A DNA stretch of 4,675 nt from positions 1-4,675 of IMG/VR virus record IMGVR_UViG_2663763286_000001, one strand, 5' to 3'. The stretch's first letter is position 1. Each line of letters starts with the position of its first letter. Under the pieces are notes generated by a model. It searched no databases, was not told where the DNA came from, and saw only the letters and a list, made by a program, of their open reading frames with translations. Origin of the DNA: a virus (taxonomy: Duplodnaviria; Heunggongvirae; Uroviricota; Caudoviricetes). Made by a program: the position numbers and the translations under genes. Shown here in pieces: positions 1 through 4,495 of the stretch.

Positions 1-161
1 TAACGTGGGTGGACTGGTATAACAATCGACGATTGCTGGAAAGGCTGGGCCATATTCCTCCGGCAGAAGCAGAAAAAGCTTATTATGCTTCCATCGGAAA
101 TAATGATCTGGCAGCCTGAGTTCACAGATAAAATACTCTCCAGGAAACCCGGGGCGGTTCA
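1..161 (+). mobile_element. IS3-family insertion sequence (IS629/IS1203-like), right end; element continues beyond the window start
   Basis: Transposase reading frame ends at 119, followed by a terminal repeat 122..161 whose reverse complement reads TGAACCGCCCCGGGTTTCCTGGAGAG..., matching from memory the IS629/IS3411-type terminal inverted repeat. The element ends ...GGTTCA (CA-3'), as IS3-family ends do. The left end is outside the window, so the repeat pair cannot be confirmed. Confidence 0.6.
3..119 (+). CDS. Transposase OrfB C-terminal fragment (rve/DDE integrase-core type), 5'-truncated by the window edge
   Basis: Frame 3 translates to TWVDWYNNRRLLERLGHIPPAEAEKAYYASIGNNDLAA*. The YNxRR...LG...PAE pattern is typical of the C-terminus of rve-domain transposases, and a terminal inverted repeat follows directly. 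Confidence 0.55.
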   Translation, partial: TWVDWYNNRRLLERLGHIPPAEAEKAYYASIGNNDLAA

Positions 162-198
162 AATAAATGCCACCGCTATTGCAACTCCTACAGCGGTG
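162..198 (-). terminator. Putative intrinsic terminator downstream of the DUF551 gene
   Basis: Inverted repeat CACCGCT (171..177) / AGCGGTG (192..198) with a 14-nt loop; on the minus-strand RNA it is followed by GCAUUUAUUUG. The loop is long and the U-tract is interrupted, so this is weak. The IS end abuts it at 161. Confidence 0.3.
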
Positions 199-217
199 AA
201 TGCTTCAGGCCAATTCA

Positions 218-721
218 TCACTTCACCTCCTGCGGCGGTTCCGGTAGCGGCATCCAGTGGGTTACCTCTTTGAGATACAGGTCTTCGCCATCACCGTCAT
301 CCCAAGTGGGATTGCCATCATTAAACCAGTCGCCATATACGCCGACCTGAGTGTTGGGGATGTTTGGCGGGTAGTTGTTTTTAAAGTCAGCCGCTAACAC
401 ATAGCATTGTCGCTCTCCCATTTCTGGCATTTGCTCACTACAGCTTATCCAACCATCCGGAGTTACCGGAACTGGCGGCGCGGCATATAGTGGTTTAGGT
501 GATATCTCCGCACGTTTTGCGTATGCTTCAACTGTGTCAGGATTAAACAGGATTATGTTTTCGCCGCATTCCCACGCTATTGGTTTTGCTTCCAGCGATG
601 CCAGAGCAATTCGTGCCAGTTCTTCCGCTTCTTCTGCTGGCAGTACAACGTTGCTACCAGGTCCGTATGTTTCGCGCCACTGCTTGATTGTCAGTAGTCG
701 CTCTTTGGTTATAGTGGTCAT
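218..721 (-). CDS. Phage DUF551-domain protein (167 aa)
   Basis: Intact ORF ending in a double stop (TGATGA). The C-terminal half (PDGWISCSEQMPE...GVYGDWFNDGNPTWDDGDGE...THWMPLPEPP) fits my recollection of DUF551 proteins of lambdoid prophages. Its ATG overlaps the upstream stop as ATGA. Confidence 0.8.
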   Translation of the reverse strand: MTTITKERLLTIKQWRETYGPGSNVVLPAEEAEELARIALASLEAKPIAWECGENIILFNPDTVEAYAKRAEISPKPLYAAPPVPVTPDGWISCSEQMPEMGERQCYVLAADFKNNYPPNIPNTQVGVYGDWFNDGNPTWDDGDGEDLYLKEVTHWMPLPEPPQEVK

Positions 722-928: not shown

Positions 929-1117
929 TCACTCTCCTTTAGTACGCAAGTGGTTTTTCCAGCGGTTTTGCGCCGCGCTGGGCTTTTTGCAAAAACCACA
1001 ATCCATCATCCCGTAATGTTTCATTAACCCCATCCGTCGGTTGCTGAGTCTCACCCACTGCCAGACGCCAGGAGCGTTTCTACGAACTAACAGAATCTTT
1101 GCTTTACGGTTTTTCAT
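929..1117 (-). CDS. Small basic hypothetical protein with a CxxC motif (62 aa; MKNRKAKILLVRR...)
   Basis: ATG at 1117 is preceded by CAGGAGAG with a 7-nt spacer. Its stop lies 1 nt before the next gene's ATG. The frame stays open upstream to 1276 (115-aa version adding a second CxxC), but that extension has no start codon with usable Shine-Dalgarno spacing. Confidence 0.6.
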   Translation of the reverse strand: MKNRKAKILLVRRNAPGVWQWVRLSNRRMGLMKHYGMMDCGFCKKPSAAQNRWKNHLRTKGE

Positions 1118-1269
1118 CGTTTTGCTCTCCTGCGTCTCTTTGCTGCTCGTCGTGCCGCTGCAATACCGGTATGGCGGCGCTTTGGTGTCGGGATGATGTT
1201 CTTTGCAATTAGCGCAGAAGCCCAAAAACGAGTCGGATACGGTAACAAGCCGAGACATGCCACACGCAT
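1114..1269 (-). CDS. Possible Arg-rich 51-aa ORF (MRVACLGLLPYPTRFW...RRAAKRRRRAKR), alternative frame to the extension of the 929..1117 gene
   Basis: Best ribosome-binding site in the window (AGGAGGTGA, 6-nt spacer, ATG). Start overlaps the upstream stop (TAATG) and stop overlaps the downstream start (ATGA). The low-complexity Arg/Ala-rich C-terminus and rare Arg codons argue against it being a real protein. Confidence 0.3.
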   Translation of the reverse strand: MRVACLGLLPYPTRFWASALIAKNIIPTPKRRHTGIAAARRAAKRRRRAKR

Positions 1270-1718
1270 TACTCACCTCCTTTGATGCGAATGCCAGCGG
1301 CGCGTAATGCGTGTTCTAGGTCAATCAGGTAAAGCCAACTGCCATTTTCTTTAGGTATCATGACTTGTCGCTCATCTGCATTTATCGGGTGTCCATATCG
1401 AAGGTCGTAGAGAGTCGGTAATTGAACTTCCCGCGCTTCCAGTTCAGCAATACGCTTGCACCCATCAGAGATAACTCCCTCGTAATACTCGCGCTGCTCG
1501 TTGAGTTTTGATTTTGTCTCCTCAAGCTCAACGCGCAGCTTCCCTACCGTTAGCGCAATATCCTCGTTCTCCTGGTCGCGGCGGTAGAGGCTACAATAGC
1601 TGCTGAAGCATGCACTTGTTGGATATTCACCAACAATGCCGCGACAAAAATCATCTTCTTCACTTGTCAGCTCCTTTGCGAATCTGTTCCGCCCATTCTT
1701 CAAGGGATTTCTCCGCAT
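1269..1718 (-). CDS. Hypothetical phage protein (about 144-161 aa depending on start; ...WLYLIDLEHALRAAGIRIKGGE)
   Basis: Long minus-strand ORF. The only canonical in-frame start codons with meaningful length lie inside the upstream gene: ATG at 1754, ATG at 1718 (GGTGA only 2 nt upstream), TTG at 1703 (GGAGA with a 6-nt spacer). The reported start is provisional. Possibly Ea22-like by position; no motif recognised. Confidence 0.6.
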   Translation of the reverse strand: MRRNPLKNGRNRFAKELTSEEDDFCRGIVGEYPTSACFSSYCSLYRRDQENEDIALTVGKLRVELEETKSKLNEQREYYEGVISDGCKRIAELEAREVQLPTLYDLRYGHPINADERQVMIPKENGSWLYLIDLEHALRAAGIRIKGGE

Positions 1719-2274
1719 ATTCACCGGACAGGCCATCAATCGGGTACGGTTCATTAGCCAACTCTTCTTTCGCTGACAGAATCATGCGCGTAACGTCGAA
1801 AACTTCACGCAAAGACTTATTGATAAATCCGTGATTGAACGCAGCAGCAAGACGGCTGGCGGTATAGTTAATACCCTCGTTGCGTGCTTCCGCACGAATT
1901 TCAGCCAGAAAAGCATCGGTAGCTGGAGTTTCGCTGTGGTGTAGGGCATCGTTGATAATCATTGCAGCAACTCCGGCCTGCCCTGCATCCGTGACCGACA
2001 CATGATCAAGAGTTACAGCTATTGCGTGTTTCAGCCCGGCGTTCTCCGCCGCCAGCGCTGAAAACTTCTCGTGTGCCAACTTAACAGCCGAATCAGCCTG
2101 CTTAATTGACTCAATCGCTTTCTGCTGGTCTTCGGACAGAGCCGAAATCTTGGCCTCCGCTTCAGCAAATTTACGCACAAGATATTCAGCGTTTGTTTCG
2201 TTAACCTTTAAATCACATGGGATGCATTTACCTTTCAGAAATCCATCCATCTCAATTAGTGTCATTTGTTTCAT
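1660..2274 (-). CDS. Hypothetical mildly acidic, Ala/Glu-rich phage protein (204 aa from [12 protein letters not shown]...)
   Basis: Long ORF whose ATG at 2274 overlaps the upstream stop (ATGA). Composition suggests helical/coiled-coil regions (inference). Alternative starts are GTG at 2292 and ATG at 2265. Confidence 0.7.
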
Positions 2275-4227: not shown

Positions 4228-4337
4228 TTTGACCTCCATTTTCTGTAGGCTTCGACGGCCTCACGAAACATCTTTTCATCGCCAATAAAAGTGGCGATAG
4301 TGAATTTAGTCTGGATAGCCATAAGTGTTTTATCCAT
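4224..4337 (-). CDS. kil: Kil, host cell-division (FtsZ) inhibitor homolog, 37 aa
   Basis: Translation MDKTLMAIQTKFTIATFIGDEKMFREAVEAYRKWRSK is near-identical over about 33 residues to lambda Kil as I recall it (MDQTLMAIQTKFTIATFIGDEKMFREAVDAYKKW...). AGGAG lies 9 nt upstream. The start overlaps the cIII stop by 8 nt, as in lambda. Confidence 0.85.
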   Translation of the reverse strand: MDKTLMAIQTKFTIATFIGDEKMFREAVEAYRKWRSK

Positions 4338-4470
4338 TTTTGGGAACTCCTGGCTGATTAAGTACGTCGATGAGTCGCTTCCATCCGTCACGTAATTTAC
4401 GGGTGATTCGTTCAAGTAAAGATTCGGAAGGGCAGCCAGCAACAGGCCACCCTGCAATGGCATATTGCAT
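4330..4470 (-). CDS. cIII: CIII, FtsH (HflB) protease inhibitor that stabilises CII, 46 aa
   Basis: Translation MQYAIAGWPVAGCPSESLLERITRKLRDGWKRLIDVLNQPGVPKNG matches lambda CIII residues 1-46 with one substitution (I35V), from memory. The ribosome-binding region TAAATAAGGAGCACACCATG matches the lambda cIII leader. The track's longer ORF is an upstream extension that runs through the terminator hairpins. Confidence 0.9.
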   Translation of the reverse strand: MQYAIAGWPVAGCPSESLLERITRKLRDGWKRLIDVLNQPGVPKNG

Positions 4471-4495
4471 GGTGTGCTCCTTATTTATACATAAC
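4471..4495 (-). promoter_or_regulatory. cIII translation-initiation leader (Shine-Dalgarno AGGAG plus upstream AU-rich tract)
   Basis: Minus-strand sequence UUCGUUAUGUAUAAAUAAGGAGCACACC-AUG is essentially the lambda cIII leader. In lambda this region is known to be subject to RNase III and alternative-structure control; applying that here is by homology. Confidence 0.5.

Follow-up and report, generated by a model that had tools for sequence, protein, structure and literature searches.

With a probability of about 0.92, the region 1114-1276 of the window (the whole 4,675-nt stretch of Caudoviricetes DNA analyzed here) contains one real gene, a 51-codon open reading frame. The overlapping off-frame extension of the next gene appears to be accidental, and the 62-aa product of that next gene would start at ATG 1117. 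We refer to the frame of the 51-codon gene as frame A, to that of the extension as frame B, and to the remaining one as frame C. The sequence agrees with the earlier note in that two frames are stop-free across 1117..1276. The note offered two alternatives for this region, a small, highly basic peptide or a roughly 110-aa protein with two CxxC motifs, and it named beforehand the comparison expected to decide between them, the substitution pattern of each frame among homologs. In that comparison, only frame A appears to be under purifying selection, which makes the case an ordinary annotation question. The peptide alternative is the one that stands, as its frame is intact in every homolog retrieved, with its start kept and its indels in frame.

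The features of the region are collected in Table 1. All genes of the window are on the minus strand. The product of the 51-codon gene is MRVACLGLLPYPTRFWASALIAKNIIPTPKRRHTGIAAARRAAKRRRRAKR. As the earlier note had observed, this gene is preceded by the best Shine-Dalgarno sequence of the window. The sequence AAGGAGGTGA is located within the last codons (KGGE-stop) of the upstream Ea22-like ORF; its end lies 3 nt from ATG 1269, and its GGAGG core 6 nt. The next anti-SD complement in the window has 9 nt (231..223). The Shine-Dalgarno sequence is kept across homologs with small variation. Coupling at both ends, also proposed earlier, can be read directly from the sequence as the TAATG and ATGA overlaps, the former changing to TAGTG in relatives with a GTG start. 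We propose that the 51-codon gene would be translated from its own strong Shine-Dalgarno sequence and would be coupled through TAATG to the Ea22-like ORF upstream and through ATGA to the 62-codon MKNRKAK... gene downstream. The ATGA overlap is best read as translational coupling of the 51- and 62-codon genes, and the junction ..CGATGAAAA at this overlap is found in 114 of the 118 homologs. The frame-A start codon is ATG in 85 of these homologs and GTG in 33. Because frame A contains a TGA two codons upstream, this ATG or GTG is the earliest possible start in the frame. The AGGAG upstream of the 62-codon gene probably serves as the Shine-Dalgarno sequence of ATG 1117.

Table 1. Features identified in and around the region 1114-1276 of the window.
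Feature	Position	Strand	Remarks
Frame-A ORF, 51 codons, encoding a 51-aa basic protein	1269..1114	-	ATG 1269..1267, stop TGA 1116..1114
Shine-Dalgarno sequence of the 51-codon gene, AAGGAGGTGA	1282..1273	-	10 nt complementary to the anti-SD, the longest such stretch of the window
TAATG overlap, Ea22-like ORF stop TAA / 51-codon gene start	1271..1267	-	
ATGA overlap, 51-codon gene stop / 62-codon gene start ATG 1117	1117..1114	-	
62-aa basic protein MKNRKAK... (PHROG 1380)	1117..929	-	start ATG 1117
AGGAG, SD-like, for the 62-codon gene	1131..1127	-	9 nt before ATG 1117; from AGG AGA, two Arg codons in the basic tail
21-bp deletion junction	1200..1201	-	between frame-A codons K23 and N24; from the alignment of 40 alleles
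Frame-B "N-terminal extension" (VSNACGMSRLVTVSDSFLGFCANCKEHH...)	1118..1276	-	probably non-coding off-frame, open by accident

Relatives of the region were retrieved with a frame-neutral 23-nt DNA pattern, avoiding the bias of a frame-A protein query, and 118 usable viral contigs were obtained. All 118 have an intact frame A. In 105 of them (89%), an in-frame TGA interrupts frame B, which is open only in the other 13, all carrying a 21-bp deletion. The first locus set gave a frame-B TGA in 86 of 92 loci, with no internal stop in frame A in any of the 92. One allele (L092) has frame B reopened by a TGA-to-TGG change, corresponding to a D-to-G replacement in frame A. Protein-level conservation of frame A persists despite strongly diverged DNA, and divergent relatives retain the pattern LLPY..RF....L...PHV.MA..IIP..KR.TGIAAARRAAK.RRRAKR. 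Frameshifted alleles of the small gene are known, one of them on 95 contigs; the gene therefore appears to be dispensable in some resident prophages. No locus was confirmed when GTDB species representatives were scanned with the 58-aa protein. The lytic Vequintavirinae phage Av-05 (locus L090, 601-800) carries a homolog of the small gene at 70% DNA identity, located after a gene ending ...LRKGGE-stop. Relative to frame A, this homolog falls into two different frames, through a frameshift or a sequencing error, and was excluded from the substitution counts; P0075 is an intact relative of the Av-05-type protein.

For the substitution pattern, 40 distinct alleles were aligned, and changes were counted along a minimum spanning tree. 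In these counts, which come from closely related, recombining sequences of a family of low diversity (14 clusters at 50% identity) and are not fully independent, frame A has 86 synonymous and 66 non-synonymous changes (dN/dS ~0.30), an excess of synonymous changes with p=2e-13. No synonymous excess is seen in frame B (24 synonymous, 126 non-synonymous, dN/dS ~1.7, p=0.995) or in frame C (30 synonymous, 118 non-synonymous, dN/dS ~1.35, p=0.95). When the two most divergent alleles are left out, the ratios are 0.26, 2.55, and 1.36 for frames A, B, and C, respectively. The alignment of the 40 alleles contains six gaps with lengths of 3, 15, or 21 nt, all multiples of three. These patterns indicate purifying selection on frame A, and none is visible in frame B upstream of 1117. 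For the 62-codon gene, 31 alleles give a dN/dS of ~0.34 (p=1e-6) in its own frame and ~1.2 in the remaining two. The contrast between the two genes thus suggests that frame B is constrained downstream of ATG 1117 and unconstrained upstream of it.

The apparent extension can be traced to the deletion. Most homologs span 212 nt, compared with 191 nt in this window, a difference of 21 nt, and the 21-bp deletion is common to this window and to the 933W/VT2-Sakai-type Stx phages. In frame A, the deleted 21 nt encode PHVLMAD, and in frame B they include a TGA (...CPDG-stop). Frame B is open into the 62-codon gene because the deletion removed the only stop of this +2 frame, and the frame opened in this way would mimic an N-terminal extension of the 62-aa protein. 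In the longer homologs, the frame-A protein has 56-58 aa, so that the 51 aa of the window correspond to a 7-codon deletion variant. Complete E. coli genomes contain 152 records at 95-99% identity, which, among the matches listed, have the length of the query (the short form), and 406 further records at 80-95% identity, where the full-length matches listed are ~21 nt longer. The 7-residue segment is kept in all of the more divergent relatives (L091, L092, P0055-P0060, P0074). The long form would therefore be ancestral and the deletion of the window derived.

The opposite reading, namely that the true product is a 109-115-aa two-CxxC protein initiated at GTG 1276 or ATG 1258 and that the 51-codon ORF is spurious, appears extremely improbable. 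Frame B is indeed open in this window, being stop-free for 115 codons from GTG 1276 (929..1276, minus strand), and orf8 of the original VT2-Sakai record, with 155 aa, uses this frame. The double openness at 1114-1276 is statistically unremarkable, as shuffling the codon order of ORF A leaves the +2 frame open in 9% of cases, and every one of the other window genes tested has an off-frame stop-free run of 30-63 codons, reaching at least 43 in eight of the nine. The 115-aa product also matches PHROG 12350 (155 aa) at 9e-82; however, this match shows only that the same annotation choice was made elsewhere. The TGA found in frame B of 105 of the 118 homologs and its dN/dS of ~1.7 argue against this reading, and so does the fate of its motifs. 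In the divergent relatives L091 and L092, the place of FCANC is taken by VVINSYS and SLNSYAA. DCGFC, the second CxxC, is absent from the MKNRKAK paralogs and carried only by the window-type paralog. Neither motif thus appears to be conserved, and the label "CxxC protein" does not describe a family feature. Among Pfam zinc-finger and zinc-ribbon profiles, none matched at threshold, the single hit, zf-C2H2_jaz (E=0.09), reaching 13.4 bits against a cutoff of 22.6. The possible frame-B starts are limited, as noted earlier, to a GTG within the Shine-Dalgarno sequence or an ATG 17 nt past it. GTG 1276 abuts GGAG with zero spacing, and ATG 1258..1256, 17 nt past GGAGG, lies 11 nt beyond the well-placed ATG 1269. 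In addition, every tandem paralog begins with the conserved N-terminus MKNRKAK. The two-CxxC alternative of the earlier note is therefore not retained.

It has also to be considered that both products are made in the 933W/VT2-Sakai-type deletion lineage, the 51-aa protein together with an extended form of the 62-aa protein. Such young overprinting is very unlikely. The corresponding mechanism, low-level initiation at ATG 1258 after the 21-bp deletion, yielding a 109-aa extended form alongside the 51-aa protein, has only a very slight probability; if true, it would be a case of very young overprinting that arose from one deletion. The variant with the deletion is frequent (the 152 E. coli records and 13 of 118 viral contigs mentioned above) and keeps frame B open, and the unrelated allele L092 is also open in this frame through its TGA-to-TGG change. 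However, ~9% of codon shuffles are open over this length by chance, and no usable start signal is present in frame B. The two substitutions that distinguish the window from the 933W type are both non-synonymous in frame B, and no constraint is visible. The 933W type carries an extra ATG six codons before 1117, which is absent from the window. As for dual coding in general, frame B is not open across homologs, has no synonymous excess, and lacks a plausible start of its own. It is similarly very improbable that neither frame is translated and that the 150 nt are a non-coding spacer or RNA element, kept as a recombination boundary of phage modules. PGAP leaves a gap here in the short variant, and the flanking junctions are conserved across different Ea22 variants, as mosaic boundaries would be. 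A spacer would not account for a synonymous excess specific to frame A, for indels that are all in frame, for a start codon maintained through the switch between ATG and GTG, or for a frame-A protein that is conserved where the DNA has diverged. No Rfam family matched the region 1114-1276.

The preferred reading, a single 51-codon gene followed by a 62-codon gene from ATG 1117, is consistent with the arrangement downstream. The 62-aa protein matches the PHROG 1380 profile over its full length (1-62 of 62, E=4.5e-40). In many relatives, ORF A is followed by one or two tandem MKNRKAK paralogs, each starting exactly at the ATGA overlap. These paralogs have 58-63 aa and are all very basic, and their copy number varies between phages (loci L010, L014, L046, and L066, about 774-1144). 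The junction sequence ...CGATGAAAAACCGTAAAGC is repeated at every paralog boundary. The tandem region has the appearance of a recombination hotspot, with unequal or modular exchange.

The 51-aa protein matches PHROG 13831 with E=1.1e-27, its residues 1-51 aligning to profile positions 1-58 of 58. PHROG 13831, represented by WP_001261587.1 (58 aa, "hypothetical protein"), shares with it the start, the stop, and the position between the Ea22-like and MKNRKAK genes, and the window copy differs in lacking the seven internal residues PHVLMAD. The assignment to this family follows from the full-length profile match, the synteny with shared gene boundaries, and the purifying selection described above. 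PHROGs mirrors the split among annotations (13831, 1380, and 12350), and a PHROG match therefore cannot decide the frame. The 155-aa product of PHROG 12350 and VT2-Sakai orf8 fuses frame B with the 62-aa gene, and only its C-terminal 62 residues, equivalent to PHROG 1380, correspond to a supported gene. PHROG 12350 appears to be built on over-extended ORF annotations in deletion-variant genomes. In the VT2-Sakai record, orf8 (locus L005, 295-762) also overlaps ea22, fusing part of that gene as well. On near-identical DNA, PGAP annotates the 62-aa gene only and leaves a 151-nt gap; in the longer homologs, PGAP does annotate the 58-aa form (WP_001261587.1). The annotation of phage Min27 has a 68-aa ORF09. 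Two deposited phage records, one of them produced with PHANOTATE, annotate proteins of 51 and 62 aa.

Judged by its gene content, the locus belongs to the early-left (exo-xis-type) region, transcribed from pL, of a lambdoid prophage of the Stx-phage-like type. The PGAP annotation of the closest E. coli prophage lists CIII, Kil, an AAA ATPase, a phage anti-RecBCD protein, a DUF2737 protein, two Ea22-like proteins, and hypothetical proteins of 62 and 69 aa; the cIII, kil, AAA ATPase, anti-RecBCD, and Ea22-like genes share one strand. The Rfam family Lambda_thermo (the cIII thermoregulator) matches 4425-4483 on the minus strand with 88.5 bits. This match overlaps the start of a cIII homolog (MQYAIAGWPVAGCPSESLLERITRKLRDGWKRL...) at 4330-4470, and two terminator-like hairpins (4559-4540 and 4519-4500) lie just upstream on the same strand, in a tL1-like position. 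The lambdoid exo-xis ORFs (orf60a, orf61, orf63, orf73, ea8.5, and ea22; PMC8614690) resemble the 51-codon gene in their operon position, within the variable block that follows ea22, small size, overlapping stop and start codons, and accessory character. However, the 51-aa protein has no sequence similarity to any characterized exo-xis protein, and the 51-codon ORF is not described in the papers on these proteins, including the above review (PMC8614690).

Several neighboring features were observed. Similarity of the upstream Ea22-like ORF (1754..1269, minus strand) to Ea22 relatives begins only at RRDQENEDIAL. The initial ~57 codons show no such relationship and overlap with the Ea22-like ORF that comes before (2274..1660, minus strand). 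The ORF looks like a truncated or mosaic copy, and in strain E2855 the corresponding ORF is a partial pseudogene in the PGAP annotation. Another frame of this Ea22-like region contains a 37-codon ORF (1663..1550) with GTGA coupling and an AAGGAG Shine-Dalgarno sequence. At the other end of the window, positions 1-170 include the 3' end of an IS3-family transposase ORF at 9-119 (plus strand) and an apparent repeat ending near 170, which looks like the IS terminal repeat. The insertion appears to cut a 19-codon ORF (218..159, minus strand; MNWPEAFTAVGVAIAVAFI followed by a stop), with the stop apparently supplied by the IS end. This short ORF is TGATG-coupled to a DUF551 gene and has the second-best Shine-Dalgarno sequence of the window, AGGAGGTGA (231-223).

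The 51-aa protein has a pI of 12.0, with 15 Arg and Lys residues and zero acidic residues. AlphaFold2, run with an alignment of 30 sequences, predicts helices at residues 11-25 and 33-50, with a mean pLDDT of 70 and a pTM of 0.28. The block-mean pLDDT for residues 41-50, within the Arg-rich helix, is 84, compared with the overall value of 70. The second of these predicted helices is made up of the Arg-rich tail HTGIAAARRAAKRRRRAKR, which is conserved. When 1.84 billion representatives were searched with a profile, only 14 clusters at 50% identity were obtained. At 90% identity there are 73 clusters, and all names given by the sources are from E. coli or E. albertii, with proteins described as "hypothetical" or "uncharacterised". 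The family of the PHROG 13831 type thus appears restricted to Escherichia phages, with a usual length of 56-58 aa. Remote relatives have differing N-terminal halves and a common tail, R-H-T-G-[IV]-A-A-A-[RK]-R-A-A-K-K-R-R-R. Since this tail is common to remote relatives, it would be a specific motif and not mere low complexity. The earlier description of a low-complexity Arg/Ala/Lys-rich peptide is accordingly right about the basic composition, but it does not fit the conserved N-terminal half and the specific tail motif. The remote relatives that share the tail only are P0075-P0079, one of which (locus L215, 2501-2668) is encoded in a Mu-like prophage, immediately behind an Amidase_3 endolysin. 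This neighbor was considered as a functional clue and rejected, as the match covers only the tail. Searches of Pfam, NCBIfam, PADLOC, and PDB sequences gave no match to the small protein, and two small-ORF surveys list neither the peptide nor its DNA in their supplements.

Arginine-rich-motif (ARM) peptides, such as that of lambda N, which is produced from the same early operon, contain a short Arg/Ala/Lys-rich helical segment. The 51-aa protein has no homology to them; the likeness is compositional only, and the helix is a predicted one. Our best guess, drawn from the composition and a model of moderate confidence, is that the small protein may be a nucleic-acid-binding accessory protein of the early operon.

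The same 150 nt have been annotated in four incompatible ways (a PGAP gap, the 155-aa orf8, the 68-aa ORF09, and the 51- plus 62-aa pair), of which the last alone is supported. RefSeq records of 933W-type prophages are accordingly without a small gene. No new mechanism is involved; the result would add one more conserved small basic protein to the exo-xis/early-left region of Stx phages.
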